Below, in pieces: positions 1-33,402 of a stretch of 35,920 nucleotides of DNA; position 1 is the first letter of the stretch; every line of letters begins with the position of its first letter. Under the pieces are notes generated by a model. It saw only the letters and a program-made list of their open reading frames with translations. It did not search any database and was not told the origin of the DNA. The stretch is taken from IMG/VR virus record IMGVR_UViG_649989946_000004; one strand, written 5' to 3'. The translations under genes were made by a program, and so were the position numbers. The DNA is from a virus (Duplodnaviria > Heunggongvirae > Uroviricota > Caudoviricetes).

Positions 1-1143
1 CTATGCTGTTTTGATATCTACGATAATCCAGTCTTTACCACGATCATCATTGTATCGGTCGGTCATTTTTCTGGATTTATGGCCTAACAACTTTTGCGTA
101 TCCAGACCCTGTTCCCGATATAACCGTTCTGACAGAGATCGCTGCTCATGAAATGTGGGCGCAGTTCCTTGCTCCCATTTTATGCCACATTTTTCCCTGG
201 CCTTTTTAAAAGCCGTTGTCAGAGTATTTGCAGAAACCTGGTCTCCTCTGTTTGCTTGAGAGGTAGTGTGACGGTAATGGACCAGATATTTACTAACAAC
301 AGCATCCCTGCACTGAGATATAACTTCACGAAGGGTAATATTCAGAGCATCGCATTTCAGGTTAAGCGGAATAGCAAGTTTTGAACCGGTTTTTTCCTGA
401 GTAATGTGCAACATGTCGTCCCAGATATCAGAGAATTTCAAATTGCAGATATCACCTAAACGTTGTCCAGTAACAAGAGCAAGTAGCATGCCGCATTTTA
501 AATAGGGCTGCCGTCTGCTTACGCTTTCAAATATTGCCTGCCATTCGGGCAGTGACAATCTTTGGCGGTTTACTCGATTTCGCGGTTGTTTTGTTGCCTG
601 CGCTGGGTTAAATCCTGGCGGAACATGTCCTGCGTGTTGTGCTTCTTTGAAGACGTCGATCAACACCATTCTCACGACTTGCGCCATCCTGTTATGACCT
701 TCAGCCTTTACAGCATCAATTATTTCGGCAATATCAAGTGCGGTAATATCCTTGAGGTGTTGCATTCCACAATGCTCACGGAAAAGACGAATGGGTTTGC
801 CTTTTTGCCGATAGGAGTTGGGTCTTAGTTCATTATGTTGCAGCCTGTCCTCCTGGATAGAAATATATTTATCAAGCCATTCTGTCACCGTAATGTCTGA
901 GCGCCTGCCTTTCATTCTTTCCAGACGCTCATTGACGCTTAATATTTGTCTGGTACGTTGTTCAGCAATAATGGTATTTGCTTCAGTAGCAACTTGTTTT
1001 GCTTCATTCTCATCAGTTCCTAAGCTATGAAAACGACCGGATAGTGGATGTTTGTATTGCCAATATACCTTTCCGGTTCGCTTATCTAATTTGCAATATA
1101 AATTGGGTATAGAGATTTTGTGAGATCGGGGTCTAGCAGCCAT
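1..1143 (-). CDS. int: Phage integrase (tyrosine recombinase), DLP12 IntD-like
   Basis: 380-aa ORF; translation closely matches my recollection of E. coli lambdoid/DLP12 integrase, including the C-terminal ...HEQRSLSERLYREQGLDTQKLLGHKSRKMTDRYNDDRGKDWIIVDIK. ATG at 1143, stop at window edge; attL would lie just outside the window. Confidence 0.9.
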   Translation of the reverse strand: MAARPRSHKISIPNLYCKLDKRTGKVYWQYKHPLSGRFHSLGTDENEAKQVATEANTIIAEQRTRQILSVNERLERMKGRRSDITVTEWLDKYISIQEDRLQHNELRPNSYRQKGKPIRLFREHCGMQHLKDITALDIAEIIDAVKAEGHNRMAQVVRMVLIDVFKEAQHAGHVPPGFNPAQATKQPRNRVNRQRLSLPEWQAIFESVSRRQPYLKCGMLLALVTGQRLGDICNLKFSDIWDDMLHITQEKTGSKLAIPLNLKCDALNITLREVISQCRDAVVSKYLVHYRHTTSQANRGDQVSANTLTTAFKKAREKCGIKWEQGTAPTFHEQRSLSERLYREQGLDTQKLLGHKSRKMTDRYNDDRGKDWIIVDIKTA

Positions 1144-1369
1144 CAGCGATTATCCGTTGGAGTTTTGGGTTTGCGTTTATTGGGAGTTGCGGTTCTGCAA
1201 GCGTTCCTACAAAACGGGAATTTCGGTCAATCATCCAGTAGCGACCAACTTTTATAGCGGGTGGGGCCATCATTTTCCCTTGCGCGTATTTTTTCAGAAC
1301 TCGCTCACTTGGTGCTAAGTCCCCAAATTCTTCTTTAGCCCAGTCCTGTAAAGTGATTAGTCGAGACAT
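1133..1369 (-). CDS. xis: Excisionase (Xis)
   Basis: 78-aa ORF directly upstream of and overlapping int; strong SD (GAGGAGG) before ATG; small basic protein typical of lambdoid Xis. Confidence 0.8.
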   Translation of the reverse strand: MSRLITLQDWAKEEFGDLAPSERVLKKYAQGKMMAPPAIKVGRYWMIDRNSRFVGTLAEPQLPINANPKLQRIIADGC

Positions 1370-1508
1370 TTGTCCTCCTCTTAGCTGCTGAGGGAGTTTG
1401 TGACCGATATATCTGACATGATATTAAGCTCATGGCAGGTACATCTCTTGACTGGTCATAGAGATAAATTTAATGCTGAGGAATGCAGTATTGAATTTAT
1501 CAATTTTT

Positions 1509-1748
1509 CTATTTCCTGCGTATGGCACGTAACTTCTTAATGTGTTCTGCCGTTTCGATCTCTTCTGCTATCCGATCTGCATCAGCTTTATTCACAGGTT
1601 CAAAGTCATGATTAAAGCGGAACATGCTGGCGATACATGTTCTGCCTTTTCGGATGTAGTGAACTTTGTTGTGGGTAGAACGCAGGATTTTGCAGGGAGT
1701 GCCGTGGTGGTCGACGTACCAGGTGTTAGGAAAAATGATTCTGAACAT
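1509..1748 (-). CDS. Hypothetical early-left (b-region) protein
   Basis: 79-aa ORF with ATG and GAGGTG SD; same strand and operon context as the other early-left genes; no family recognised. Confidence 0.55.
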   Translation of the reverse strand: MFRIIFPNTWYVDHHGTPCKILRSTHNKVHYIRKGRTCIASMFRFNHDFEPVNKADADRIAEEIETAEHIKKLRAIRRK

Positions 1749-1795
1749 TTTTACACCTCAGTTGGACGATGTTGAAATTTGCTGCTTTGAGGCCA

Positions 1796-2014
1796 TCACA
1801 GTCCCCATTGTTTGTTCTTAAGTTCGATCTCCTCCTGGCAACTTGCACAAGTCCGACAACCCTGAACGGCCAGGCGTCTTCGTTCATCTATCGGATCGCC
1901 ACACTCACAACAATGAGTGGCAGATATAGCCTGGTGGTTCAGGCGGCGCATTTTTATTGCTGTGTTGCGCTGTAATTCTTCAATTCCTGATGCTGAATCA
2001 ATGATGTCTGCCAT
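1796..2014 (-). CDS. TraR/DksA-family C4 zinc-finger protein
   Basis: 72-aa ORF with CxxC...(17)...CxxC motif (CCECGDPIDERRRLAVQGCRTCASC) typical of phage TraR/DksA-like proteins. Confidence 0.7.
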   Translation of the reverse strand: MADIIDSASGIEELQRNTAIKMRRLNHQAISATHCCECGDPIDERRRLAVQGCRTCASCQEEIELKNKQWGL

Positions 2015-2111
2015 CTTTCATTAATCCCTGAATTGTTGGTTAATACGCTTGAGGGTGAATGCGAATAATAAAAAGGAGCCTGTAGCTCCATGATGATTTT
2101 GTTTTTCATGC

Positions 2112-2393
2112 TCACCGTTCCTTAAAGACGCCGTTTAACATGCCGATCGCCAGGCTTAAATGAGTCGGTGTGAATCCCATCAGCGTTACCGTTTCGCGGT
2201 GCTTCTTCAGTACGCTACGGCAAATATCATCGACGTTTTTATCCGGGAACTGCTGTCTGGCTTTTTTGATTTCAGAATTAGCCTGACGGGCAATACTGCG
2301 AAGGGCGTTTTCTTGCTGATGTGTCATTGAACAAGTCCCATGTCGGCAAGCATAAGCACACAGAATATGAAGCCCGCTGCCAGAAAAATGCAT
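2112..2393 (-). CDS. Hypothetical early-left protein (start uncertain; possible internal start at 2327)
   Basis: 93-aa ORF in tandem with neighbours; no obvious SD at either candidate start. Confidence 0.4.
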   Translation of the reverse strand: MHFSGSGLHILCAYACRHGTCSMTHQQENALRSIARQANSEIKKARQQFPDKNVDDICRSVLKKHRETVTLMGFTPTHLSLAIGMLNGVFKER

Positions 2394-5299: not shown

Positions 5300-5653
5300 T
5301 TATTTGGGTTTCTGACATTGTGTATTTCTTAATCGTGTCATCGTTAAAAAGAATAGTAAGTTCTTTTTCGTACCGTTCGTTCCATTATGGAATAATCCAT
5401 AGAATGGAATAAAAGTGGTGCCATTAACTTTTACTTTTGCAAAGGCGTACTTCCAGATCTCGTTTCCACTGTCAGTATATGAAACAGCATCAGGAGAACC
5501 AAAGTAAGATTTAACCTCATTCTTGGTTGTTTTACCTTCCTGAAGTTTAGACTGGACACTAATTTCAGTTTCATTTTTGAGTTGCTGGTTGCCTGAAGAA
5601 GCACACCCAGCCAATACAGATGCCATCATGGCAGCGATTAGGATTTTTCTCAT
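5300..5653 (-). CDS. Prophage lipoprotein (signal peptide + lipobox LAGC; BamE/SmpA-OmlA-like motif) at the rexAB-equivalent position
   Basis: 117-aa ORF MRKILIAAMMASVLAGC...; motif G.SPD...G.EIWKY resembles BamE-like lipoproteins. C-terminus likely frame-shifted at the T5 run 5334-5338: corrected frame would read ...GTKKELTILFNDDTIKKYTMSETQINSKSGWAD and end at 5278, 12 nt before the terminator. Confidence 0.6.
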   Translation of the reverse strand: MRKILIAAMMASVLAGCASSGNQQLKNETEISVQSKLQEGKTTKNEVKSYFGSPDAVSYTDSGNEIWKYAFAKVKVNGTTFIPFYGLFHNGTNGTKKNLLFFLTMTRLRNTQCQKPK

Positions 5654-6976: not shown

Positions 6977-7516
6977 ATGCAACCACTTACATACCAACAG
7001 ACTAGCGGATTTATTCCGACTGCGGTGATAAATCGTTCTCAAACAAAACAAGCTCCAGGCCACGAAAAAATCCGTGATGCCGTCCGCGCCTGGTCGGCTG
7101 TAGATAATCAGGATGTCGTTGCCGCACTCATTGTGAATGAGTATCGGGAGCAGGGCGACGGCACCATCGATTTCCCTGATGATGTCAGCCGTGCACGCCA
7201 GAAGCTGTTCCGCTTCCTCGATAACAAATTCGATTCTGAAAAATACCGAAATAACGTGCGTGAACTGACCCCGGCAATTCTGGCGGTACTACCGCTGGAA
7301 TATCGCGGTTACCTGGTTGAGCAGGATAGCTTCATGACTCGGTTGGCTGAAATGGAAAAGGAACTCAGTGAGGCAAAACAGGCTGTCATTCTCAACGCAC
7401 CACGCCACCAGAAACTGAAGGAAATGAGTGAAGGTATTGTGTCGATGTTTCGTGTGGACCCGGATCTGGCTGGTCCATTAATGGCGATGGTGACCACCAT
7501 GCTGGGGGCAATATGA
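6977..7516 (+). CDS. YdaT-like protein (CII-position regulator)
   Basis: 179-aa ORF with AAGGAG SD; segment RELTPAILAVLPLEYRGYL resembles Rac prophage YdaT as recalled. Confidence 0.6.
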   Translation: MQPLTYQQTSGFIPTAVINRSQTKQAPGHEKIRDAVRAWSAVDNQDVVAALIVNEYREQGDGTIDFPDDVSRARQKLFRFLDNKFDSEKYRNNVRELTPAILAVLPLEYRGYLVEQDSFMTRLAEMEKELSEAKQAVILNAPRHQKLKEMSEGIVSMFRVDPDLAGPLMAMVTTMLGAI

Positions 7517-7602
7517 CAGGTTCAGAAATGGCGAAAGTCGGTCTGCGGGAACAGAACCGACTTTCAGGTGCAAATCGTAACACACTCATTGCGGGAGGAA
7601 TT

Positions 7603-8532
7603 ATGGCAAACACTGCTGAGATATTCAATTTTCCAGTGCCGGATGCGGCACAAAAGGAGCCGCGCGTGGCAGATCTCGATGATGGTTATACGCGCATTGC
7701 AAATGAGTTGCTGGAAGCTGTGATGCTGGCCGGATTAACACAGCACCAGCTTCTGGTCTTCCTGGCTGTCATGCGCAAAACATATGGCTTTAATAAAAAA
7801 CTGGATTGGGTGAGCAACGAGCAACTTTCCGAGTTGACCGGGATATTGCCGCACAAGTGTTCTGCTGCAAAAAGTGTTCTGGTAAAGCGTGGGATTTTTA
7901 TTCAGAGCGGGCGGAATATCGGCATTAATAATGTGGTCAGTGAATGGTCAACATTACCCGAATCAGGTAAGAAAAATAAAGTTTACCTGAAAGAGGTAAA
8001 TTTACCTGAATCAGGTAAGAAAAGTTTACCCAAATCAGGTAAAGGCACTTACCCGAATCAGGTAAACACAAAAGACAAACTAACAAAAGACAATATAAAA
8101 CCTTTTTCGTCCGAGAATTCTGGCGAATCCTCTGACCAACCAGAAAACGATCTTCCTGTGGAGAAACCAGATGCTGCAATTCAGAGCGGCAGCAGGTGGG
8201 GGACAGCAGAAGACCTGACCGCCGCAGAGTGGATGTTTGACATGGTGAAGACCATCGCGCCATCAGCCAGAAAACCGAATTTTGCAGGGTGGGCTAACGA
8301 TATCCGCCTGATGCGTGAACGTGACGGCCGTAACCACCGCGACATGTGCGTGCTGTTCCGCTGGGCATGCCAGGACAACTTCTGGTCCGGTAACGTGCTA
8401 AGTCCGGCCAAACTCCGCGACAAGTGGACCCAACTCGAAATCAACCGTAACAAGCAACAGGCTGGCGTGATAGCCGGAAAATCAAAACTCGACCTGACAA
8501 ACACTGACTGGATTTACGGGGTGGATTTATGA
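7603..8532 (+). CDS. O: Replication initiator O
   Basis: N-terminal domain (MANTAEIFNFPV...VADLDDGYTRIANELLEAVMLAGLTQHQLLVFLAVMRKTYGFNK) matches lambda O; GGAGG SD before ATG at 7603; iteron array inside the gene; stop overlaps P start. Confidence 0.9.
   Translation: MANTAEIFNFPVPDAAQKEPRVADLDDGYTRIANELLEAVMLAGLTQHQLLVFLAVMRKTYGFNKKLDWVSNEQLSELTGILPHKCSAAKSVLVKRGIFIQSGRNIGINNVVSEWSTLPESGKKNKVYLKEVNLPESGKKSLPKSGKGTYPNQVNTKDKLTKDNIKPFSSENSGESSDQPENDLPVEKPDAAIQSGSRWGTAEDLTAAEWMFDMVKTIAPSARKPNFAGWANDIRLMRERDGRNHRDMCVLFRWACQDNFWSGNVLSPAKLRDKWTQLEINRNKQQAGVIAGKSKLDLTNTDWIYGVDL
7954..8067. repeat. Origin iterons (ori) inside O
   Basis: Five ~19-bp direct repeats (TTACC(C/T)GAATCAGGTAA-like) within the O linker region, the arrangement of lambda ori. 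Confidence 0.8.
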
Positions 8533-9230
8533 AAAACATCGCCGCACAGATGGTTAACTTTGACCGTGAGCAGATGCGCCGGATCGCCAACAACATGCCG
8601 GAACAGTACGACGAAAAGCCGCAGGTACAACAGGTAGCGCAGATCATCAATGGTGTGTTCAGCCAGTTACTGGCAACTTTCCCGGCGAGCCTGGCTAACC
8701 GGGACCAGAACGAACTGAACGAAATCCGCCGCCAGTGGGTTCTGGCTTTCCGGGAAAACGGGATCACCACGATGGAACAGGTTAACGCAGGAATGCGCGT
8801 AGCCCGTCGGCAGAATCGACCATTCCTGCCATCACCCGGGCAGTTTGTTGCCTGGTGCCGGGAAGAAGCATCCGTTACCGCCGGGCTGCCAAACGCCAGC
8901 GAGCTGGTTGATATGGTTTACGAGTATTGCCGGAAACGTGGCCTGTATCCAGATGCAGAGTCTTATCCGTGGAAATCAAACGCGCACTACTGGCTGGTTA
9001 CCAACCTGTATCAGAACATGCGGGCCAATGCGCTTACTGATGCGGAATTACGGCGCAAGGCTGCCGATGAACTGACTTGTATGACCGCGCGAATTAACCG
9101 TGGTGAGGCGATACCTGAACCAGTAAAACAACTTCCTGTCATGGGCGGTAGACCTCTAAATCGTGCACAGGCTCTGGCGAAGATCGCAGAAATCAAAGCG
9201 AAGTTCGGACTGAAAGGAGCAACTGTATGA
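8529..9230 (+). CDS. P: Replication protein P (DnaB helicase loader)
   Basis: 233-aa ORF essentially identical to lambda P by recall (MKNIAAQMVNFDREQMRRIANNMPEQYDEKPQVQQ...). Confidence 0.95.
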   Translation: MKNIAAQMVNFDREQMRRIANNMPEQYDEKPQVQQVAQIINGVFSQLLATFPASLANRDQNELNEIRRQWVLAFRENGITTMEQVNAGMRVARRQNRPFLPSPGQFVAWCREEASVTAGLPNASELVDMVYEYCRKRGLYPDAESYPWKSNAHYWLVTNLYQNMRANALTDAELRRKAADELTCMTARINRGEAIPEPVKQLPVMGGRPLNRAQALAKIAEIKAKFGLKGATV

Positions 9231-9529
9231 CGGGCAAAGAGGCAATTATTCATTACCTGGGGACGCATAAGAGCTTCTGTGCGCAGGACGTTGCTGCGGT
9301 AACAGGCGCAACAGTAACCAGTATAAATCAGGCTGCGGCTAAAATGGCACGGGCAGGAATCTTGGTCGTTGATGGTAAGGTCTGGCGAACGGTGTATTAC
9401 CGGTTCGCTACCAGGGAAGAACGGGAAGGAAAGGTGAGCACGAATCTGATTTTCAAGGAGTGTCGCCAGAGTGCCGCGATGAAACGAGTGTTGGCAGTGT
9501 ATGGAGATATGAACTTAAACTTGCTGTGA
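9227..9529 (+). CDS. ren: Ren
   Basis: 100-aa ORF MTGKEAIIHYLGTH...KVWRTVYYRFATREEREGK matches lambda Ren. Confidence 0.85.
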   Translation: MTGKEAIIHYLGTHKSFCAQDVAAVTGATVTSINQAAAKMARAGILVVDGKVWRTVYYRFATREEREGKVSTNLIFKECRQSAAMKRVLAVYGDMNLNLL

Positions 9530-9777
9530 CGGTTTTCATCGGTAACACACCATGTAATCTAGCAGTCAGCTTAGAAATAGGAGCGGCAGTTAAAGATTTT
9601 TCAGTTAGTAGAAAATTACTGTTATTGCAGGGATCTAATCACCGGAGAGTCGTTCCATTTGTCTTATGATTACCTGAAGTCCGTTAGTTCGTTGGTAATC
9701 ACCGTTTTTGTTAGAGAAGTAAGCATCGCTGACAAAATATTCTCAACGATGCCTGCTTTATTGCTACTACAAATTAA

Positions 9778-11278
9778 TTAAATTGCATCTGCAAACTCTG
9801 GGGTTTTTCGCTCAGGTATAATTGATGAGTTGCTGTTGTCACTTTTTTTATTTTCATGATTACGAATAGCCAATGACTCATTAAAGTCTTTTGCGACTGC
9901 TGTCTCAATAAATTCAATTTCTGAATCAGAGTGTTTTTTAACAGCTTCTTTGATCTCATCCAGAGTAACATAGAAAAACTCTTTTCTACGATTTACAAGA
10001 TTGACTCTCTTTTTATCGAAGACATCATGTAGTTTTTTTCTAATGATGGAGCGTCCTCCGAATAAATCATGGCATGTACATCAAAAATAAAAGGAACAGA
10101 TGCATCACCGAGCTCATTTACACGGTCTTGCGGATCAAGACGTCGTGTCATGCCTATTTTATAAACATTCTCCCCAAAAGAACCTATGTTCGAAATAATA
10201 TAAACATGACCTTGTTTGGTTTGTTGTGCCATGGATAATGCTCTTTGATGCTTTGATTCAGCCTGCGACAAACTCTGTTCTAGTTCGGCAATGCGATTTT
10301 CGAGGCGCTGCTTCATGTCACCAGTAACTTTTTCCATTTCCTTTCTTGCAGCTTCAATTGCTTTTTTATAACGGCGCTCTTCTGCCTCTGCGTCTTGCAT
10401 GGCCTTTTCTATTTCTCGTTGTGCACGCTCCTCCTCTCTCATTTGTGCCCTTATTTCTGCCTGTTCTTCTTTTTCTTTCTGTTTTTGCTCACGATATTCA
10501 TGGGTAAGCCACAATTCCTCAAGTTTTTTATTGAGGTATTTAGTGTTTATATATATATGATTTTGCTCGTTTAGTTTATTTATGGCCTCAAATGCCTTTG
10601 TGATGCGTTCTTCCATTTTAGTGATGTTTTTCCACGTGCAATTGCTAATTGCAGCATCACATTCATTATTAAATGCTCTAGTAGTTAGCCTGATATTTCT
10701 GTCTGTCATTTTTTTACCCTCTGCTCGAGAGCCTTCAACAGTCCATTGGGTTGTACAATATACTGCGCCAGAGTGGGTTTTATCCCGCAGCATTAATTTC
10801 TGTTCATCCCTGATGGATTTTATTTTGTTTTTAAATTGCTCTGAATCTTCAAAATTAAAATGAGGTTCGTAAAATCCTAGTTCGGCTAGCTCAACATCTT
10901 CTGAATAAATAGAAATTTGCCTTACTAGTTTATCATATATTTCTTTCTTCTCTTTATAAGTTCTTCTTAGCTCTTGGATTTGTTTATTGATACCATCCAT
11001 TTTTTCAATGGTGTTTGTTAGTTCATTATTGGCATTTTCTTTTACTTTTAGGGATTCTTCTTTTATTATGGAGCATTCTTGCTCTGTTTTCTCAATAAGC
11101 TTCTTACATTCTTCTTCTACATTAAAATAATCTGCAAAGCGAGATTTGTATTCTTCATTTTTTTGATTGCTATCACTTAATTCTAATTGTATTTTTTGAT
11201 GCGTTTGATTGCAGCTATATAAAGAACAAGAACAACCAATAAAAATATGATTGCAAGTAATAGAGGAGTTTGAGTCAT
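9778..11278 (-). CDS. Membrane-anchored coiled-coil protein with C-terminal T5orf172/GIY-YIG-like domain (DUF4041-like architecture); reading frame interrupted twice at homopolymer runs
   Basis: ATG at 11278 encodes a TM helix (MTQTPLLLAIIFLLVVLVLYIAAIKRIKK) that stops unless the T6 run 11192-11197 is read as 7; main 435-aa ORF (9993-11300) has a long coiled coil and GHVYIISNIGSFGENVYKIGMTRRLDPQDRVNELGDASVPFIFDVHAMI; the domain continues in the -1 frame (LHDVFDKKRVNLVNRRKEFFYVTLDEIKEAVKK...) to a stop at 9778 if the T7 run 10043-10049 is read as 8. Confidence 0.65.
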
Positions 11279-11587
11279 TCGTGCTATTCCTTACGGACAA
11301 TTTAAGACGTTTTGTATTAAATCCTGTTCAATGTGTATGCGGGTGATTGCTACCGCTTACAATCTTCATAATTATCAGTTAGATAGACTCGCTAGTAAAT
11401 AATTTCATTTTTTGCAATATTCTTATTGAATATTTCAATTTATGAAATGAACTCTTTATCCTTTCAAGGCGAAAGGTTTCTTCTTCGGAAATATTTGCTC
11501 TCGTGTGACGTATAAAGACCTTTGATTTTCAAAAATCAGTAGGGAATAATATAGTTACTGTCGGCCTGAACACCCGGTGGTGGGGTT

Positions 11588-11692
11588 GCGCTAAACGGGG
11601 ACGTTTATGCGCACACACAATCCAAACTCTCATCTCCATTCACAGATGCAGAAATGCACCTACGATTTTTTACATTCGGTGTTTTACTTCGA
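11588..11692. repeat. Direct repeat copy A (~105 bp, ~90% identical to copy B)
   Basis: GCGCTAAACGGGGACGTTTATGCGCACA...TTCACAGATGCAGAAATGCACCT... recurs at 13521-13625. Confidence 0.8.
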
Positions 11693-11737
11693 CAGCCAGA
11701 ATTGGGAGTCTCTATTCGTCTGGCGGCTAAAGGTGAT

Positions 11738-11827
11738 ATGGAAATCGTTATGTTTTGGCCTGAGGTAGTTGTAACTGTTGTAGCAGCTATGGCTGTGATC
11801 ATCATGGTGTCCATTTACTGGGGTTGA
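11738..11827 (+). CDS. Small hydrophobic peptide ORF (29 aa), speculative
   Basis: AAGGTGA SD then ATG; MEIVMFWPEVVVTVVAAMAVIIMVSIYWG is a single predicted TM segment; lies just after repeat copy A. Confidence 0.25.
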   Translation: MEIVMFWPEVVVTVVAAMAVIIMVSIYWG

Positions 11828-11913
11828 CGACATGATTTATCCGGCGCTATATTCTGTGCGTTGCCGCAAAATCGGCACACGGGATTGGCGTCCCGGGATA
11901 CTACTCAACGCAT

Positions 11914-11934
11914 ACCGCGTTAAGCGGTTTTTTT
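11914..11934 (+). terminator. Possible weak rho-independent terminator
   Basis: Short stem ACCGC-GTTAA-GCGGT followed by T7. Confidence 0.3.
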
Positions 11935-12090
11935 GTGCGCTAAGCACGGCTATGCCCAAATTATGGTGGGCTGTGTGAGGGCTTCTTCGGAAGCGCCGGG
12001 TTTGAGTAGCCGGTTACGCCAACCTTACACAGTTCACCACCAGTCGATTGGCGTCGTTGGTGGTGATGGTTAACCTGATGAGGTGATACT

Positions 12091-12699
12091 ATGACTACTC
12101 AATTAGCATTCCACAAAACGACGTTTACCCCGATTTGCCACAATAACAGAATTTGGCTTACTGCCACTGAAGTTGGTTTAGCACTGGAATATGCGGACGA
12201 TAAAGCAGTTCAGCGCATTTACTCTCGGCACTCAGATGAATTCACAGATATGATGACAAGGGTGGTCAAAGTGACCACCCCTCGTGGAATGCAGGAGTCT
12301 CGAGTATTTAGCCTTCGCGGAGCCCATTTGATCGCCATGTTTGCTCGTACTCCTGTGGCCAAAGAATTCCGCCGCTGGGTTCTGGATATTCTCGATCGAG
12401 AAGTTCAACAATCCCCAATCACAAAACAATTCACTGATAACGAACTTTGCACACTCGCCTGGTTATGGCGAGCAAGTGATACGATGTTAACCGCCTGCCA
12501 GAACGTTACGCCCCTTCTTCAGGTCGCAGAGCATCGCGAAGCAGGTAGATTCACTTCAATCGAACAAGAATATCCTCGGATACTCAACAGGGCGCGAGAA
12601 ATCCTTGCCAGAGAAACGGCGCATGTAAAATTCCAACCGTGGCAGGATGATAAGTGGAGTCGTGTGTTACCATATTTCCGTCAGAATCTGTTGCAATAA
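12091..12699 (+). CDS. BRO-N / antirepressor-like protein
   Basis: 202-aa ORF with GAGGTGA SD; N-terminal pattern (LAFHKTTF...IWLTATEVGLALEY ... RVFSLRGAHLIAMFARTPVAKEFRRWVLDIL) fits the Bro-N / P22-antirepressor N-terminal fold. Confidence 0.6.
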   Translation: MTTQLAFHKTTFTPICHNNRIWLTATEVGLALEYADDKAVQRIYSRHSDEFTDMMTRVVKVTTPRGMQESRVFSLRGAHLIAMFARTPVAKEFRRWVLDILDREVQQSPITKQFTDNELCTLAWLWRASDTMLTACQNVTPLLQVAEHREAGRFTSIEQEYPRILNRAREILARETAHVKFQPWQDDKWSRVLPYFRQNLLQ

Positions 12700-12933
12700 A
12701 GTCACTAGTTAGAAATACTGCCAGCATTCTGCGATGACGGAAGTGCTGGCATTTTTTTGGTAATGTGCGAGTCCATTTCATAAAATACGGGTACTGGAAC
12801 TGGACGATATAATCTAAAAGATACCATTATCAGTAGCATTAAAATCGCTATGTGCCGATACGGATATAAATTATATTGATTGTTCACATACCTTATTGGA
12901 TATTACTGAGGGGTGTTTATATAAGGTGTAACG

Positions 12934-13443
12934 ATGATGTGGAACTTTGACAGTGCCGACTTAAGTGCAATAGCAGCAGGCATTTCTGCGTTTGGCACAT
13001 TAGCCGCAGCGGGGTCGGCGCTTGCAAGTTGGTGCACGTCAAAAAAAGCGCTGCAGCTACAAAATAGAGTTTACCTTTATGAGTCTTTAAAGGCTTGCGC
13101 TGAGAGAGCCAATTCATCAGCTAAAGATAAGCGCGGATCTGAATGGAGCGTTAATGATGCAGCGGATATCATCAGGTGCCTAGTACGGGCGATGGAGCTC
13201 ATCAAGCAGGATAGCCAGCAGAAAGAAGGTAATCAGGCATTAATGTTGAAACAGTACTTTGTTAATCTGCTAATAATGGAACTGTACGAGGAAGTTCATA
13301 ACGGTGATGCGGCTGATTCTGTTTTTAAAAGTACGGAACCTACACAAGTACTTGATAACTTATGGAGCAAATGGCAGGAGGCTATAGCTTTTTTTGATAT
13401 TTGGAATTACCCAGTTGCGACTGAGGAAGACTTGGCAGACTAA
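12934..13443 (+). CDS. Hypothetical membrane protein (N-terminal TM helix, cytoplasmic alpha-helical domain)
   Basis: 169-aa ORF with AGGTG SD, preceded by a ~230-bp AT-rich promoter-like region; hydrophobic segment LSAIAAGISAFGTLAAAGSALASW; no family recognised. Confidence 0.6.
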   Translation: MMWNFDSADLSAIAAGISAFGTLAAAGSALASWCTSKKALQLQNRVYLYESLKACAERANSSAKDKRGSEWSVNDAADIIRCLVRAMELIKQDSQQKEGNQALMLKQYFVNLLIMELYEEVHNGDAADSVFKSTEPTQVLDNLWSKWQEAIAFFDIWNYPVATEEDLAD

Positions 13444-13520
13444 TTTTCAGCACATTTGATTTCCAATAATCAACCAGCCATAATCATGCCATTGGAGCTT
13501 GAACAACTCCGGTGACTTCT

Positions 13521-13625
13521 GCGCTAAACGGGGACGTTTATGCGCACATACAATCCAAACTCTCTTCTCCCTTCACAGATGCAGAGATGCACCTGCGATT
13601 TTTTGCATCCAGCGTTTGACCTCTG
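13521..13625. repeat. Direct repeat copy B, immediately upstream of ninB
   Basis: See copy A; ends ~12 bp before the ninB GTG start. Confidence 0.8.
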
Positions 13626-13637
13626 CGGAGGTGAAGC

Positions 13638-14093
13638 GTGAACCTCCCACAAGACGGCATCAAATTGCATCGTGGTAACTTCACCGCTATCGGCCAGCAG
13701 ATCCAGCCTTATCTGGAGGAAGGCAAATGCTTTCGCATGGTGCTTAAACCGTGGCGTGAGAAACGCAGTCTTTCCCAGAATGCACTCAGCCACATGTGGT
13801 ACAGCGAAATCAGTGAATACCTCATCAGCAGGGGTAAAACGTTCGCCACTCCAGCTTGGGTAAAAGATGCTCTCAAACACACATATCTCGGTTATGAAAC
13901 CAAAGACCTGGTTGATGTCGTAACCGGTGAGATCACCACTATCCAGTCGTTACGCCATACCTCCGATCTTGATACCGGAGAGATGTATATCTTCCTGTGT
14001 AAGGTTGAAGCCTGGGCGGTGAATATTGGCTGCCACCTGACTATTCCGCAGAGCTGCGAGTTCCAGCTGCTCCGCGACAAGCAGGAGGCGTAA
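13638..14093 (+). CDS. ninB: NinB-family recombination protein
   Basis: 151-aa ORF, GTG start with GGAGG SD; motif [21 protein letters not shown] matches the NinB RSLDQN region. Confidence 0.75.
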
Positions 14094-15700: not shown

Positions 15701-16783
15701 TTAGAACTGGTAAACCATACCTACAGCAACGATATCATCGGTAGCAACGCCAGATGCTTTCGTGAAATCGCTCTTATCAATCAGGTTGATTTTGTAGTCA
15801 ACAAAAGTGGACATATTTTTGTTGAAGTAATAGGTTGCACCTACATCAATATATTCAACCAGGTCCTGATCACCCCAAGCACCCAAGTCTTTTCCTTTAG
15901 ATTGCAGGTAAGCAACGGACGGACGCAGACCGAAGTCGAACTGATATTGTGCAACTACTTCGAAGTTTTGTGCTTTGTTGGCAATATGGTTATTACCAAA
16001 AACAGTCATGTTCTGGGTTTCAGAATAGGTAGTAGCCAGATAGATGTTGTTCGCATCATATTTCAGACCAGCTGCCCATACTTCAGCATTTTGACCAGAT
16101 GCATTCAGGCTGTTGTTACCGTAGATAACCTGATTATTAGTGCGGTCAGATTTAGCATAGGTTGCACCTACGCCGAAACCTTCATACTCATAAGTAGTGG
16201 AGAAACCGAAACCATCACCATTAGCTTGAGTTACGTCAGTGCGGTCATTTTTACCCTGATACTGAGCAGCAAAGTTCAGACCATCAACCAGACCAAAGAA
16301 GTCGTTGTTACGATAAGTTGCAACACCTGTGGTGCGACCAGTCATGAATACATCTGTTTGGGTCCAGGTATCGCCACCGAATTCTGGCAGAACGTCGGTC
16401 CATGCACCAATATCGTATGCTACACCGTAGTTACGGCCATAATCGATGGAGCCGTAGTCACCGAATTTCAGGCCAGCGAAGGCAAGACGGGTTTTATCTT
16501 TGGAGGAACCTTGAGATTCAGCGCGGTTGCCTTTGAATTCATATTCCCACTGACCGAAACCAGTCAGTTGATCGTTGATTTGGGTTTCACCTTTGAAGCC
16601 AAGACGGGCATAAGTAGTATCACCATCATCTGCATCATTAGAGGAGAAGTAGTGCTTAGCATTAACTTTCCCGTACAGATCCAGCTTGTTACTGTCTTTA
16701 TTATAAATTTCAGCTGCCTGAGCAGACATCGCCATCAGTACTGATGCAGCTACAGCAGAAATTGCCACTGTTAATTTTTTCAT
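15701..16783 (-). CDS. nmpC: General porin, OmpC/OmpF family (NmpC-like), apparently intact
   Basis: Signal peptide [23 protein letters not shown] then AEIYNKD... and C-terminal ...VGMVYQF typical of enterobacterial porins; located between Q and the lysis cassette as in DLP12. Confidence 0.9.
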
Positions 16784-17210
16784 CGTGAGCCCTTTTTTTG
16801 AACTATTATTAAAAAATGATGTCACTGCGCGATAAATATTCATCTAATCAATGTGATTATTTCAAGATGTAAGTTTTGGTTTCTCGTTTGATTTGTGAAG
16901 TAGATCTCTATTTTTATCTGAACTTTTTTCTATCGAATCCTATTCATGGCTCTTGGCTGAATAAAAATAAATCTATTAGCCAATTTATATTAACGGCTGT
17001 CATTTATAAGTGCTCTATAATTTGAAGGTTCAATTTAAACCGGCTAAAAATAACGCTGGAAATTATTTGTTGGTTATTTGTTGATATTTGCTTATGTATT
17101 TGTAGTGGTGTTTTCAATACTCGGTAGCATTCTCGCAAATATCATTTAGTGGTTTACGTACGTAAAAAATTGGTTATGCTGTTAAGAGTGGTTACTTCGT
17201 CACACAGCTT

Positions 17211-17243
17211 AAACCCGCCGTCGAGCGGGTTTTTCCATTTTTT
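17211..17243 (+). terminator. Rho-independent terminator upstream of the lysis cassette
   Basis: AAACCCGC-CGTCGA-GCGGGTTT followed by TTCCATTTTTT. Confidence 0.5.
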
Positions 17244-17355
17244 GAGTCTCGATATTAGCTGATAACCCAATACCTGAGTTATTCACTGACTCCGAGTCTG
17301 TTACGTTTCGTAGTATTCCCTCAATTTACACCCGCTTTGTCTGCGAGGTGGGGTT

Positions 17356-30029: not shown

Positions 30030-30367
30030 CGCGGGAAATGCAGTTTGTCATGCGGCTTGCCCGGGAGTTCCGGCGGGCAGACTGGCGGCGGATGCTGTCG
30101 GAAATGTCGGCCACTGAGCTTGGTGAGTGGGGCGATTATTTCCGGATGCAGAGCTTCAGTGATGTGTGGATGGATGCGCAGTTTGCCTCGCTGAAGGCAT
30201 TGATCGTGAGAATGGTGTCCGGTAGCAGTGATGCTGCGGTGGCTGATTTCAGCCTTTTACCGGAAGAGAACGGGATACCGGAGCGAACGGACGAAGAACT
30301 GATGCATCTTGGGGAAGGTATTTCCGGAGGTGTGCGTTATGGACCAGATAGCCAACCTGGTCATTGA
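29640..30367 (+). CDS. Tail assembly chaperone GT (programmed -1 frameshift product)
   Basis: The -1 frame is open from 30005 and continues 112 codons past the G stop (30027-30029) to 30367; the shift window 30005-30029 contains GGAAAAG; conserved G/GT arrangement of lambda-like tails. Confidence 0.7.
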
Positions 30368-33300
30368 TTTGGGGATTGATGCGGCAGAGTTTAAAAATGA
30401 AATTCCCCGTATCAAAAACCTTCTGAATGGTGCAGCCAGCGATGCAGAACGGTCTTCTGCCCGTATGCAGCGTTTTATGGAGCGTCAGACTCAGGCCGCC
30501 CGGCAGACAATGCAGGCGGCTTCTTCGGCTGCAACAGCCGCATCCGTCCATGCGCAGACGGTGGAGAAGAGCGCACAGGCTCATGAACGCATGGCCCGCG
30601 AGGTGGAGCAAACCCGCCAGCGTATGGAGGCACTGAGCCAGAAAATGCGCGAGGAACAGGCGCAGGCCATGGCTCTGGCGGAGACTCAGGATAAAGCGGC
30701 TGCCGCGTTTTATCGTCAGATTGACAGTGTGAAACAGGCCAGTGCGGGGCTGCAGGAATTACAGCGTATTCAGCAGCAGATCCGACAGGCCAGAAACAGT
30801 GGCGGGATTGGTCAGCAGGATTATCTGGCGCTGATTTCTGAGGTTACGGCGAAAACCGGTGTTCTTACGCAGGCTGAGGCAGAGGCTACCCGACAGAAAG
30901 TGGCGTTTATCCGTCAGCTTAAAGAGCAGGCAACCCGCCAGAATCTTTCTTCTTCTGAGTTGCTTCGTGCTAAGGCTGCCCAGCTGGGGGTAAGCAGTGC
31001 TGCAGAAGTGTATATCCGCAAAATGGAGCAGGCAGGAAAAGCCACGCATTCGCTGGGTCTGAAAAGTGCAGCGGCCCGCCAGGAGATAGGCGTTCTGATA
31101 GGTGAACTGGCTCGCGGCAATTTAGGTGCGCTGAGGGGATCCGGGATAACGCTGGCTAACCGTGCCGGATGGATAGACACACTGATGTCACCGAAAGGCA
31201 TGATGCTGGGCGGGGTTATTGGCGGTATTGCCGCGGCCGTCTATGGTCTGGGTAAAGCCTGGTATGATGGTCAGAAGGAGGGGGAAGAATTTAACCGCCA
31301 GTTGTCGCTGACGGGGCATTATGCCGGAGTCACTGCCGGGCAGCTGTGGACGCTCAGTCGTGCTATTTCCGGGAATGGTATTACGCAACATGCTGCAGCC
31401 GGTGCGCTGGCTCAGGTGGTGGGGAGTGGTGCATTTCGTGGAAACGATATCGGTATGGTGGCGAGAGCTGCCGCACAGATGGAGCGATCGGTTGGCCAGT
31501 CGGTCAGCGATACCATAAATCAGTTTAAGCGGCTGAAGGATGATCCTGTAAATGCCGCGAAGGCTCTGGACAATGAGCTGCATTTTCTTACTGCCACTCA
31601 GCTTGAGCAGATACGCGTCCTTGGGGAACAGGGGCGGTCCAGTGATGCGGCACGGATAGCCATGTCTGCACTGGCAGAGGAAACCGGTCGGCGTACTGCG
31701 GATATTGATAATAACCTCAATGCGCTGGGCAGTACGCTGAAGTATCTGTCTGATTTATGGAGTCGTTTCTGGGATGCGGCCATGAATATTGGTCGTGAAG
31801 ACTCGCTGGATGAACAGATTTCCGCTTTACAGGAGAAAGTGTCGCGGGCGAAAAGACTCCCCTGGACGGCATCATCTTCTCAGGTTGAGTACGATCAGCA
31901 GCGTCTTAACGAGCTTCAGGAGAAAAAACGCCAGAAGGATTTGCAGGATGCAAAAGAGCAGGCAGAGCGGAATTATCAGGAGCAACAGAAACGCCGTAAT
32001 GCTGAAAATGCTGCACTGAACCGGATGAATGAAACGGAAGCAGCACGACATCAGCGTGAAATTGCGCGTATTAATGCCATGCAGTACGCCGATCAGGCTG
32101 TCAGGGATGCGGCGATACAACGTGAAAATGAACGTTACGAGAAAGCCCTGGCATCCGGTAAGAAAAAACACGCGAACCCCGTAATGATGAGGCCACCCGG
32201 TTATTGCTGCAGTACAGTCAGCAACAGGCACAGGTGGAAGGACAGATTGCTGCTGCCAGACAGTCAGCAGGCATTGCCACGGAAAGGATGACAGAAGCGC
32301 ATAAACAGCTTCTGGCTCTGCAGCAGCGCATCAGCGACCTGGACGGGAAAAAACTGACGGCAGATGAAAAGAGTGTGCTGGCCCGTAAAGATGAACTGAT
32401 TCAGGCACTGACGCTGCTGGATGTAAAACAGCAGGAGCTTCAGAAACAGACGGCACTCAACGAGCTGAAGAAAAAACAATTCAGCTGACCAGTCAACTGG
32501 CTGAAGAAGAGCGCGCTCAGCGTCAGCAACATGACCTGGATATCGCCACGGTGGGTATGGGTGATCAGCAGCGGCAGCGATATCAGGTACAACTGAGTCT
32601 TCGCCAGAAATACCAGCAACAGCTGGAGCAGTTGAGGCGGGATAGTGAGCAGAAAGGAACATATAACACGGATGACTACAGAAAGGCCGAGCAGGCGCTG
32701 ACGGAGAGCCTGAACCGACAACTGAATGAGAATCGCCGTTACTGGCAACAGCTTGAAGTTGTGCAGGGTAACTGGAAAAACGGAGTCCTGCGTGCATTTC
32801 AGGATTTTACCGTGGATGCAGATAATACGGCAGGAACAGCAGAACAGGTGTTCTCGTCAGCCTTCAGCAACATGGGAAATGGCCTGGCAACTTTTGTCAC
32901 TACCGGCAAACTCAATTTCAAATCCTTCACCTCTTCTGTGCTGTCAGATATGGCGAAAATCCTGGCGCAGGCAACCATGATGAAATCGATAAAAGGGATT
33001 GGCAGTGTACTGGGATTTGATCTCAGCAGCCTTTCCCTGAATGCCAATGGGGGGATTTATCAGTCTGCTGATTTGAGTCGTTACAGTGGCACGGTGGTTA
33101 ACCGTCCGACGTTTTTTGCTTTTGCAAAAGGCGCGGGTGTGATGGGGGAAGCGGGACCTGAAGCCATTCTGCCACTGCGTCGTGGTGCTGACGGTAAGCT
33201 GGGGGTTGTGGCGGATATTGGTGGTTCAGGTATGGCGATGTTTGCCCCGCAGTACAACATCGAGATCAATAACGATGGCACGAACGGGCAGATAGGTCCG

Positions 33301-33402
33301 GCTGCCCTGAAGGTGGTTTATGACCTCGGGAAAAAAGCGGCAGCGGACTTTATGCAACAGCAGGCCCGTGATGGTGGTCGGTTAAGTGGAGCATATCGGT
33401 AA
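30339..33402 (+). CDS. H: Tail tape measure protein H (frame broken twice at A6 runs in this assembly)
   Basis: Three successive ORFs (30309-32291, 32204-32488, 32551-33402) are rejoined by adding one A to each of the A6 runs at 32163-32168 and 32471-32476; coiled-coil-rich; C-terminus ...NIEINNDGTNGQIGPAALKVVYD...DGGRLSG matches lambda H. Confidence 0.85.

Follow-up and report, generated by a model that had tools for sequence, protein, structure and literature searches.

The 4108 bp that separate ren from a NinB-like gene in the window (the whole stretch of viral DNA that was analysed, 35,920 nt) are very probably an occupied variable slot that holds two modules, one carrying the gene of the anti-phage nuclease PD-lambda-1/SNIPE (module A) and the other an antirepressor operon (module B), together with an orphan gene (Table 1); the same reading takes the frameshifts of the nuclease gene to be artefacts. 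The locus is already known, near-identical copies being present in public genomes. The ren-to-ybcN slot is a hypervariable hotspot of accessory and defence genes in lambdoid prophages of the DLP12/phage-82 type; it would have the replication genes (P/ren) on one side and the beginning of the nin region, orf33-ybcN, on the other.

Table 1. Features of the ren-to-ybcN interval and its flanks (window coordinates)
Feature	Coordinates	Strand	Evidence or remark
ren, left flank	9227..9529	+	PHROG 142 Ren-like, E = 5.5e-42
ren-tail variant and spacer	9505..9718	.	38.3% GC; outside minimal SNIPE unit
Hairpin just 3' of SNIPE stop codon	9721..9754	-	Putative terminator or stabiliser
PD-lambda-1/SNIPE gene	9778..11278	-	Pfam DUF4041 E = 1e-19, MUG113 E = 4e-9
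AT-rich region upstream of SNIPE	11279..11520	-	Promoter-like site; AAGGAA Shine-Dalgarno
Internal copy of promoter-orf33 (ylcH) cassette, module A/B joint	11521..11690	+	
Promoter-like site of isrK-C4-ant operon	11824..11853	+	TTGACG-18-TATATT, 10/12 consensus matches
IsrK-like leader sRNA	11862..11934	+	Rfam RF01394, 58.7 bits (gathering score 50)
C4-type antisense RNA	11959..12044	+	Rfam RF01695, 74.8 bits (gathering score 45)
C4 target region around ant ribosome-binding site	12046..12102	+	
Antirepressor-like gene ant, 202 aa	12091..12699	+	Pfam Bro-N E = 4e-10, P22_AR_C E = 2e-17
Intrinsic terminator 3' of ant	12719..12757	+	GCCAGCA...TGCTGGC then T-run; fold z = -3.0
169-aa orphan gene	12934..13443	+	PHROG 1779, unknown function
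Conserved right flank, promoter-like/orf33 (ylcH) cassette	13455..13637	+	
ybcN, right anchor of slot	13638..14093	+	PHROG 72 (NinB/Orf), E = 1e-52

Boundaries and diversity of the slot

In phage lambda, ren and ninB are spaced by only 73 bp. A sequence-only reading of the window had described about 4.1 kb between the two genes, with three genes in mixed orientation, which coordinates and domain assignments confirm, and a Shine-Dalgarno sequence on each gene, which is evident by direct reading of the sequence. It had also placed the insertion exactly at the ren-ninB junction; the slot is there, but its edges lie elsewhere. On the left, comparison by blastn with contigs that hold other cargo (L004, L005, L011) shows that homology ends at ~9502-9504, within the last 8 codons of ren, so that these ~8 codons are part of the variable segment; in an arrangement with an HD-domain gene and SNIPE (L011, L032), homology to the window begins only at 9716. 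On the right, the same kind of comparison with phages of other cargo gives a breakpoint at 13455, 183 nt upstream of ybcN, which is also where homology to phage 82 (X92588), PhiR30_1 and PhiR68_2 begins; the flank that follows contains orf33 (13540-13641 in the X92588 annotation) and a terminator-like hairpin (13580-13597). The earlier label ninB is correct as to the NinB/Orf family but not as to type, the product being of the YbcN/phage-82 orf151 type (RefSeq 'DNA base-flipping protein YbcN'), with a match to Pfam NinB (22.8 bits) that is under the 23.8 cutoff.

A survey of 57 IMG/VR viral contigs with YbcN at least 95% identical and near-identical flanks yielded 23 architectures of 1.2-5.8 kb, comprising 46 protein families. 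Their cargo includes SNIPE alone, AbiLi/AbiLii, BstA (E = 4e-121), PRTase-CE with NADAR, an HD-domain protein and DUF4145, in keeping with the earlier suggestion that such slots in lambdoid prophages often house anti-phage genes; non-defence cargo is found in the slot as well, such as the antirepressor operon and, in DLP12, the genes emrE-ybcK-ybcL-ybcM. Conserved flanks around variable, defence-rich cargo are likewise found in the P2/P4 prophage defence hotspots (Rousset et al. 2022, PMC9122126), which differ in belonging to another phage family, whereas the present slot runs from P/ren to orf33-ybcN and its cargo is stacked via a repeated orf33 linker. Close relatives of the prophage sit at the argU site. 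With a 5.2-kb query that takes in P, ren and ybcN, near-full-length matches (at least 80% of the query) were found in 84 complete E. coli genomes, the best at 99.8-99.9%; the SNIPE segment is present to 80% or more in 131 complete E. coli genomes, and module B, by the same measure, in 112.

Two modules with a duplicated linker

The GC content of the whole interval is 40.7%, compared with 49.3% for the window. This low value is due to the SNIPE half: module A (9719-11520) has 34.9% GC, in the lowest 0.4% among windows of the same size, while module B (11685-13454), at 45.8% (29th percentile; 50.5% in its RNA leader), is compositionally not distinct. The AT-richness ascribed to the entire block therefore holds for the SNIPE half and fails for the half with the Bro-N and 169-aa genes.

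Between the modules lies a segment (11521-11684) that is 80-82% identical to the ybcN-upstream segment of phage 82, PhiR30_1 and PhiR68_2, and positions 11587-11690 and 13520-13623 form a direct repeat with 89% identity; in the internal copy the start of orf33 is truncated and fused into an ORF at 11607-11768. This internal copy of the right flank (~165 nt) had been overlooked in the sequence-only reading.

Each module also occurs without the other. SNIPE is found without module B in three of the surveyed contigs (L060, L066, L011), as in the order ren-SNIPE-orf33-ybcN of L060, whose single cassette aligns to both copies in the window, and module B is also absent from the second contig with the HD-domain gene and SNIPE (L032). 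The unit of antirepressor and 169-aa gene is found without SNIPE in three others (L017, L028, L083); in L017 the cargo on the left is a different one, and orf33'-module B-orf33 comes after it with 99.6% identity.

It is quite improbable, then, that the interval arose by a single insertion of one horizontally acquired, AT-rich moron cluster with three candidate anti-phage genes, as had been proposed. The GC content of the interval ranks among the lowest 0.5% when windows of the same size are compared, the block is contiguous in the 84 E. coli genomes, and one of its genes is a proven defence gene; however, the halves are found apart (L060, L011, L017, L028, L083), the internal right-flank copy is a recombination joint, module B is not compositionally distinct, and the Bro-N gene belongs to a C4/IsrK regulatory operon and has no PADLOC match. 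The SNIPE-only and module-B-only configurations contradict constant co-occurrence and largely refute the single-cluster view. According to the two-module reading, modules A and B would assort independently within the slot, joined by homologous recombination at conserved linkers, one being the 3' end of ren and the other the orf33 cassette of ~90-165 nt, here in two copies.

A known anti-phage nuclease gene

Judged by its sequence, the minus-strand gene is the known and characterised anti-phage nuclease gene PD-lambda-1/SNIPE; the earlier description of it as nuclease-like proves correct, and the system has been validated experimentally as an anti-phage one (PMC13190303; PADLOC). Its product has an N-terminal transmembrane (TM) helix, DUF4041 and a GIY-YIG nuclease, and an intact homologue matches PADLOC PD-Lambda-1 over its full length (E = 2e-198). 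Phage PhiR26_1 is 99.7% identical over 5.2 kb and has this gene annotated as PD-lambda-1. The gene is 1501 nt long in the window and 1503 nt when intact; with two T's restored it encodes 500 aa, 100% identical to the PhiR26_1 protein, with glutamate at residue 414, the catalytic residue mutated in published work on SNIPE (PMC13190303). The same protein in a lambdoid-prophage setting has been described before (Vassallo et al. 2022, PMC9519451; Saxton et al. 2026, PMC13190303), and the sole difference is that the frame is broken twice at T-runs here, most likely by assembly errors.

This gene does show moron traits: deviant GC, a promoter-like site of its own (TTTACT-17-GATAAT, 11399 to 11371; like all promoter sites reported here, a consensus-scan match) and a 3' hairpin. 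It thereby resembles the lambdoid 'morons' that Juhala and colleagues are said to have described in 2000, cargo genes with deviant GC and their own promoter. The RNA of 9700-9777 (minus strand) folds with -22.9 kcal/mol (z = -4.35), and the role of the hairpin is put forward as putative because a clear U-run is absent. Expression from the native promoter gives active SNIPE (PMC13190303). By identity with the system whose mechanism has been shown in the literature, it would act here as a single-gene defence system transcribed leftward from its own promoter, the constitutively made, inner-membrane-anchored DUF4041 and GIY-YIG nuclease cutting the DNA of superinfecting siphoviruses during injection via association with ManYZ and the tape-measure protein, and induction of the resident prophage would be unaffected.

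Frameshifts at homopolymers

The two frameshifts are 1-nt deletions, one at 10032 (T7 rather than T8), directly after the codon of catalytic E414, and one at 11191 (T6 rather than T7), after residue ~29. Relative to two complete genomes that are 98.1% and 99.8% identical to the window, each of the ten single-base deletions found across the window sits in an A/T run; besides SNIPE, they affect the tape-measure gene (twice, splitting it), the terminase gene (shortened) and intergenic runs. Every T8 run of the references (3/3, the third being the T-run of the ant terminator at 12751) reads as T7, and the longest run anywhere in the window is 7.

If the deletions were true, SNIPE would be dead in this strain, its TM-less, nuclease-truncated product inactive. 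That the gene is such a decaying remnant, a pseudogene through two slipped-strand events, is unlikely. There are two independent deletions in its coding sequence; loss of the TM helix alone makes SNIPE toxic (PMC13190303), so that compensation by a further mutation, in the nuclease domain, would be expected; and other strains have IS insertions within or beside the gene. Against decay, the ten deletions all fall in A/T homopolymers, including those of intergenic runs and essential late genes, the remaining sequence agrees closely with the two references, and shortening of all three T8 runs is length-dependent undercalling, a typical sequencing artefact. The frameshifts are almost certainly assembly artefacts rather than decay, given that all ten deletions lie in A/T homopolymers and that some break the tape-measure and terminase genes.

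An antirepressor operon with IsrK- and C4-type RNAs

Module B contains, in order, a promoter, IsrK, a C4 antisense RNA, a Bro-N/P22AR_C antirepressor (PHROG 245 and 5060, 'anti-repressor Ant') and a terminator, an antirepressor operon that is phage lysis-lysogeny circuitry. Its promoter-like site has the top score in the scan, with a predicted start at ~11860, and the isrK match begins 8 nt downstream of that site. The IsrK-like RNA contains decoy sites b1 (11883-11892) and a1 (11900-11908), with an intrinsic terminator (11914-11928 plus T7) at its end; the match to c4-a1b1 (RF03163, 39.6 bits) is under its gathering score. The C4 RNA (-42.9 kcal/mol, z = -5.9) has a' in its hairpin-2 loop (UUGAGUAG) and b' as single-stranded ACGCCAA; it overlaps with a short ORF, orf36 (11963-12073), that corresponds in position to Gifsy-1 orf45. 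The corresponding targets are b2 (GATTGGCGTC, 12046-12055), followed by the ant Shine-Dalgarno sequence (GAGGTGAT), and a2 (ACTACTCAA, 12094-12102), just within the gene. Each of these 9- or 10-nt target motifs has two copies in the window, in isrK and in the ant start region only. The C4 loop and both its targets co-vary across three specificity variants (the window, L012 and L085) and the b sites are invariant, presumably a parallel to P1/P7 heteroimmunity. The two Rfam-level RNAs had been overlooked in the earlier reading, and its treatment of the Bro-N gene as a free-standing, defence-type moron is rejected, the gene being the effector of an operon under IsrK/C4 antisense-RNA control.

In the proposed scheme, the sigma-70-like promoter would give a leader that mostly ends as a ~75-nt IsrK-like RNA, and read-through past its terminator would give the C4-type RNA and ant mRNA. 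The C4 a' loop and b' strand would pair with b2 and a2, flanking the Shine-Dalgarno sequence and start codon, and leave the antirepressor untranslated; the a1/b1 sites of IsrK, identical to the targets, may compete for C4. The RNA elements and their complementarity are evident from the sequence, and from these we infer both the repression of ant by C4 and the target of the antirepressor; the repressor of the prophage itself is a cI of the S24 type.

The P1/P7 immI system (c4-icd-ant; Citron & Schuster 1990, via PMC8198154) likewise has a C4-family RNA co-transcribed upstream of an antirepressor gene, and paired a/b targets with a1/b1 upstream and a2/b2 at the downstream translation start. Specificity variants distinguished by a' loop and target sequences would be a further point in common. 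The present locus differs in its lambdoid host phage with an S24-type cI repressor, a C1-type operator not being evidenced, and in having no icd gene, so that the targets lie directly on either side of the ribosome-binding site of ant. The P1 scheme of an icd translation block followed by Rho termination does not literally apply, since there is no Icd homologue and ant starts 46 nt past C4.

Gifsy-1 isrK-orf45-anrP of Salmonella (Hershko-Shalev et al. 2016, PMC4825925) shares the order of promoter, IsrK with terminator, and antirepressor, here of Bro-N plus P22AR_C type, and has a conserved ~85-nt structured segment with an overlapping short ORF before the antirepressor gene. The Gifsy-1 locus lies beside antQ, and its short ORF overlaps the start codon of the antirepressor gene; here the locus lies between ren and the nin genes in a lambdoid prophage of E. 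coli, orf36 ends 17 nt upstream of ant, and no isrJ match was found downstream of the antirepressor. In the Gifsy-1 work IsrK activates in trans, and the piece that resembles C4 was interpreted as orf45 (PMC4825925), which makes the direction of any IsrK effect here uncertain.

The orphan gene upstream of ybcN

The 169-aa gene is preceded by a 234-bp spacer (36.8% GC) with a promoter-like site (12757-12786) and is probably a transcription unit of its own, separate from the ant operon. Its product, an N-terminal hydrophobic, Ala-rich helix (Kyte-Doolittle mean 1.59) followed by an all-helical domain, is probably a small membrane-anchored helical protein; the earlier designation 'membrane protein' is plausible to that extent. 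Searches gave no Pfam or PADLOC match, and an AF2 model (pLDDT 70.7) no fold match at E < 0.1. We would guess, with low confidence, at an early-expressed exclusion or host-modulation factor.

The family is small (14 clusters, 34 representatives) and present in the lambdoid prophages sampled. In diverged lambdoid prophages, the gene directly downstream of a family member is of NinB or DUF1367 type, and members are the final slot gene in six of the 23 architectures, as might be expected if the block were not accessory cargo but part of a conserved nin-region core in this phage lineage. Such a status is very unlikely for the block as a whole: the lambda junction is empty, the same flanks enclose 23 different architectures, SNIPE is present in just 132 of 5426 E. 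coli genomes compared with 3672 that match some part of the 5.2-kb query, and other phages have members of the 169-aa family in their pL operon. For SNIPE and Ant, the architecture survey refutes core status; only the 169-aa gene, recurring upstream of ninB-like genes, leans toward it.

A composite interval between ren and ybcN

The window represents a lambdoid DLP12/phage-82-type prophage. Leading up to the interval are cI (encoding an S24 peptidase), cro, a gene with a YdaT domain at the place of cII, O, P and ren; after it come NinB-like ybcN, ninE, ybcO, rusA, ylcG, Q, a porin gene pointing leftward, the lysis genes and the late genes. Close relatives of the prophage are located at the argU tRNA beside fimZ, i.e. 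the DLP12 site. The porin gene (nmpC/ompD/ompC-like), directly after Q, has a region of 32.6% GC upstream and seems to form a second locus of the accessory or lysogenic-conversion kind in the window.

The gap between ren and the NinB-like gene pointed out in the sequence-only reading measures 4108 bp, as against only 73 bp at the lambda junction, and contains the three genes described there. The accompanying description of an AT-rich island holds for the segment with the minus-strand gene SNIPE (module A), which at 34.9% GC falls in the lowest 0.4% of same-size windows, but not for the segment with the antirepressor operon and the 169-aa gene (module B), which at 45.8% GC lies at the 29th percentile and has a 406-nt leader of 50.5% GC. 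Insertion exactly at the ren-ninB junction holds only in part when alignments are considered: homology to phages with other cargo stops at 9502-9504, inside ren, and restarts at 13455, and the stop and start codons of the flanking genes are not the boundaries of the interval. An alternative left boundary in one E. coli genome match (H102) was ruled out, being the result of an IS5-mediated deletion.

The proposal of a single moron cluster is structurally wrong, as the interval comprises two modules that are found apart in other phages. Between SNIPE and the RNA operon lies a copy, about 165 nt long (best 104 nt 89% identical), of the sequence preceding ybcN, which is annotated in phage 82 as a putative promoter, a regulator-binding site and orf33 (ylcH). 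Two comparison loci (L060, L066) have the order ren-SNIPE-orf33-ybcN, with a single cassette that aligns to both window copies. Another (L017) has a different leftward gene, encoding 472 aa, and then the internal orf33 copy, module B and orf33 at 99.6% identity; two more (L011, L032) have an HD-domain gene and SNIPE without module B; and in E. coli O26 RM8426 (L012) the place of the 169-aa gene, after the internal orf33 copy and IsrK-C4-Ant, is taken by a pair of genes, one with a HEPN domain and one hypothetical. Of the complete E. coli genomes, 131 match the SNIPE segment over 80% or more of its length, 112 do so for module B, and 84 for the full 5.2-kb query in a single match, the best at 99.8-99.9% identity. 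The modules would most simply have been joined by homologous recombination acting at orf33 and at the 3' end of ren. The locus is a worked example of how an "AT-rich island" can be a composite of a defence moron and lysis-lysogeny circuitry, joined at short conserved linkers.

Features of the interval, its surroundings and comparison loci
Feature	Sequence	Position (strand)	Remarks
BamE-like lipoprotein gene	Window	5300-5653 (-)	Frameshifted
O	Window	7513-8532	
P	Window	8529-9230	
ren	Window	9227-9529	
SNIPE segment (module A)	Window	9719-11520	
Internal orf33 copy	Window	11521-11684	
Rejected ORF	Window	11654-11827 (+)	57 aa
Module B	Window	11685-13454	
Promoter-like site	Window	11824-11853	TTGACG-18-TATATT
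IsrK	Window	11862-11934	Rfam RF01394
IsrK terminator hairpin	Window	11914-11928	Followed by T7
C4 RNA	Window	11959-12044	Rfam RF01695
orf36	Window	11963-12073	Overlaps C4
Terminator after ant	Window	12719-12757	
ybcN	Window	13638-14093	NinB-like
Porin gene	Window	15701-16843 (-)	
Low-GC region at porin gene	Window	16750-17250	
Tape-measure gene, two parts	Window	30309-32291, 32551-33402	
HD-domain gene beside SNIPE	L011	3153-4700	515 aa
HD-domain gene beside SNIPE	L032, P-to-ybcN interval	643-2190 (-)	515 aa
472-aa protein gene	L017, P-to-ybcN interval	655-2073 (-)	
HEPN-domain and hypothetical genes	L012	6321-7117	
isrJ	L010	8567-8643	Just downstream of Q
Distant 169-aa family members	L097-L099	6001-6522	
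Distant 169-aa family member	L100	6001-6522	
AbiLi and AbiLii	L094		Slot cargo
BstA	L055, L063, L069		Slot cargo
PRTase-CE and NADAR	L088, L095		Slot cargo
DUF4145 protein	L020		Slot cargo

SNIPE and the homopolymer deletions

That the nuclease-like minus-strand gene is a defence gene is borne out by its Pfam domains, a PADLOC PD-Lambda-1 match and the annotation of phage PhiR26_1. The product has the central DUF4041 domain (PF13250, E = 9.7e-20, profile positions 2-56 of 56) and a MUG113/T5orf172 GIY-YIG domain. In the gene as assembled, the latter is matched over no more than profile positions 1-41 of 73, and the reading frame is lost directly behind the catalytic Glu E414; restoring one T gives a complete GIY-YIG domain identical to the PhiR26_1 one. 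From the true ATG, at 11278, the gene encodes MTQTPLLLAIIFLLVVLVLYIAAI, a candidate N-terminal transmembrane helix (Kyte-Doolittle mean 3.37) that is continuous with the rest of SNIPE only if the run at 11191 is T7; as assembled, the frame breaks after approximately residue 29. T7 is found at the equivalent position in all relatives examined (L001 and L003, with the SNIPE coding sequence annotated as intact in L002, L011 and L015). An intact homologue, identical to the repaired SNIPE of the window, matches PADLOC model PDLC03976 (PD-Lambda-1) with E = 1.9e-198 over positions 1-485 of 491. PhiR26_1 (PV340555.1), 99.7% identical over 5.2 kb, has the gene annotated as PD-lambda-1, and in RefSeq it is named "DUF4041 domain-containing" or "SNIPE associated domain-containing".

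Compared with PhiR26_1, the window is one T short at 10032 (T7 versus T8), at 11191 (T6 versus T7) and in an intergenic run at 12751; with both T's of the gene restored, the SNIPE protein is 100% identical to that of PhiR26_1. Comparison with close complete genomes reveals ten single-base deletions (2069, 5363, 10032, 11191, 12751, 16792, 23408, 32162, 32470 and 33847), all in A/T homopolymers. In a 17-kb alignment with a genome of 98.1% identity, each of the six single-base indels is a deletion in an A/T run, and the late region, 99.8% identical to another genome, contains four further such deletions, two of which split the tape-measure gene and one of which shortens the terminase large subunit; the BamE-like lipoprotein gene is frameshifted in the same way. 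All three T8 runs of the reference read T7, and the longest homopolymer anywhere in the window is 7. This length-dependent, deletion-only pattern, which affects essential genes too, is the signature of homopolymer undercalling, and the SNIPE frameshifts are very probably an assembly artefact. Thus, any "pseudogene" in the window is to be distrusted, and seeming pseudogenes in AT-rich cargo can be homopolymer artefacts.

SNIPE has been characterized as a constitutively membrane-localized nuclease that guards cells against siphovirus infection by cleaving phage DNA during injection, requiring the DUF4041 domain and the nuclease residue E414; without its transmembrane segment it is toxic, because it cuts host DNA, and it leaves prophage induction unaffected (PMC13190303), which fits carriage by a prophage. 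The gene has the marks of a moron, in that it is absent from lambda and many relatives, has 34.9% GC, and is provided with a promoter-like site and a 3' hairpin (both signals predicted); module B does not stand out in GC content as a moron would. A degraded prophage at the argU site of E. coli LR-45 (L015), without immunity and replication genes, has kept SNIPE intact along with the antirepressor unit and nin region, a pattern of retention consistent with domestication of a defence gene.

The predicted IsrK-C4-antirepressor operon

The Bro-N gene was mislabelled as a defence-type moron, and belongs to an antirepressor operon that is probably controlled by C4 and IsrK. C4 RNA (74.8 bits versus a gathering score of 45, over the whole model, positions 1-87; fold z = -5.9) and IsrK (58.7 bits versus 50) are the sole gathering-level Rfam matches across the window; the c4-a1b1 model, at 39.6 bits, falls short of its gathering threshold of 46.7. 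IsrK, which ends in a Rho-independent terminator, is preceded at a distance of 8 nt by the region's best promoter-like site, and a strong terminator follows ant. The 202-aa ant product has Bro-N and P22_AR_C domains, belongs to PHROG "anti-repressor Ant" families and is predicted to be the antirepressor-like effector of the operon. A further ORF, with a strongly hydrophobic, toxin-like C-terminus, occupies the stretch from the orf33 remnant to the isrK promoter; an in-frame stop in its O26 homologue makes it unlikely to be a gene. The orf33 remnant before the IsrK-C4-Ant unit of the O26 locus is a pseudogene in the RefSeq annotation.

The C4 fold exposes the loop of hairpin 2, UUGAGUAG, and a single-stranded ACGCCAA. 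The complements of these exposed segments each occur twice and nowhere else in the 35.9 kb: ACTACTCAA at 11900, in IsrK, and at 12094, in ant codons 2-4; and GATTGGCGTC at 11883, in IsrK, and at 12046. Together, the two downstream sites thus flank both the Shine-Dalgarno sequence and the start codon of ant. In L012 the loop is UCGUUUUG, with the target CAAAACGA at -198 and -19, and in comparison locus L085 the loop is UGAUUACC, with GGUAAUC at -196 and -10; in both, the loop and the two sites complementary to it (the a sites) have changed together, and the b sites are unchanged. Three C4 types can be distinguished by sequence (CUACUCAA, CAAAACGA and GGUAAUC), and their three-way covariation of loop and target is strong evidence, at the sequence level, for what would be a working antisense system with distinct specificities. 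Targets were located by loop-specific motif searches, whole-C4 RNAduplex comparison with the flanks being uninformative because it ignores intramolecular structure, and covariation was assessed by motif counts, a column-wise analysis being unfeasible because the position of the downstream a site relative to the start codon differs among the three types. The specificities presumably resemble the heteroimmunity of P1 and P7 immI, and could, as they stand, be used to test antisense "immunity" types in E. coli prophages.

The arrangement matches isrK-orf45-anrP of Gifsy-1 (PMC4825925), and in its working the operon may be likened to c4-icd-ant of P1 (PMC8198154), but without icd. No icd-type gene was found between c4 and ant, where the distance from C4 to the ant start codon is just 46 nt and orf36 is the sole ORF; by this analogy the locus would be P1-like in mechanism, but it is not the P1 immI operon. 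An isrJ match (60.8 bits versus a gathering score of 37) is present in a distantly related lambdoid prophage (L010) that also has a 169-aa family member.

The 169-aa orphan gene

The 169-aa gene has its own AT-rich spacer of 234 bp and a promoter-like site. The protein has no Pfam or PADLOC match and belongs to PHROG 1779 (unknown function). Its family is small (14 clusters at 90% identity); a profile search with the family alignment returned only 34 representatives among 1.84 billion, and no Pfam domains were found among the 34. Three features recur among the members: a hydrophobic, Ala-rich helix at the N-terminus, the conserved motif A(E/D)RAN, and a tail that is acidic (DEDLxD). AF2 predicts an all-helical structure (pLDDT 70.7), for which Foldseek searches of PDB and BFVD gave nothing at E < 0.1. 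A HepT/HEPN-like fold, suggested by weak matches (probability at most 0.35), was dropped because the invariant columns of the family alignment contain no R-x4-6-H motif.

All relatives whose context was inspected are in lambdoid prophages and co-directional with the early operon. The usual place of the gene is last before ninB/ybcN; some relatives, at loci that lack Ant, directly precede NinB- or DUF1367-type genes, and others belong to the pL operon. Distant members (L097-L100) occur in the pL (N-cIII-kil-recT-exo ... int) operon or after a Dam methylase gene in the replication-nin region.

Novelty is low, since the locus, its defence gene and the two RNA families have all been described or deposited before: little is added to a characterized SNIPE mechanism, Rfam families and near-identical GenBank loci. 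A literature search on the RefSeq accessions of four island proteins found no paper. The remaining interest lies in the orphan family and in cassette stacking mediated by orf33. It is an unlikely, speculative reading that the 169-aa orphan is an undescribed, early-expressed superinfection-exclusion or defence factor and, separately, that the repeated orf33 linker is a general device for stacking and swapping defence and regulatory cassettes among lambdoid phages.

The slot in other prophages

The expectation that such a slot houses anti-phage genes is supported by SNIPE, AbiLi/AbiLii and BstA among its alternative cargos. In 57 IMG/VR contigs with both anchors and YbcN at least 95% identical, the P-to-ybcN interval has 23 architectures of 1.2-5.8 kb and 46 protein families. 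Known systems include SNIPE, AbiLi/AbiLii, BstA (E = 4e-121) and a PRTase-CE and NADAR pair; an HD-domain protein and a DUF4145 protein are further cargo, and non-defence cargo includes the DLP12-type emrE-ybcK-ybcL-ybcM set and an acyltransferase with a lipoprotein. The slot is thus a prophage defence hotspot, with conserved flanks and many cargos that include known defence systems. The PhiR phages probably come from Brenes and Laub (2025), who may also describe the hotspot.

The slot is a rich hunting ground for uncharacterized cargo, with candidates such as the 169-aa family, the 472-aa protein, the HD-domain neighbour of SNIPE and the HEPN pair. The 515-aa HD-domain protein, encoded in some prophages directly beside SNIPE on the same strand, has no PADLOC match and may be a second defence gene or a SNIPE partner. 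The 472-aa protein of L017, without a Pfam domain and with a weak PADLOC HEC-07 match (E = 1e-9), is a candidate uncharacterized defence gene; it occupies the exact position and orientation of SNIPE, upstream of the internal orf33 copy, IsrK, C4, Ant and the 169-aa gene.

Insertion sequences lie in or next to the island in several E. coli genome matches: ISEc48 in H31 and H73, IS5 in H32, H88, H89 and H102, and IS3 in H106. In MS 198-1, packaging genes come immediately after an IS5 at approximately position 9687 of the window, indicating a large deletion.
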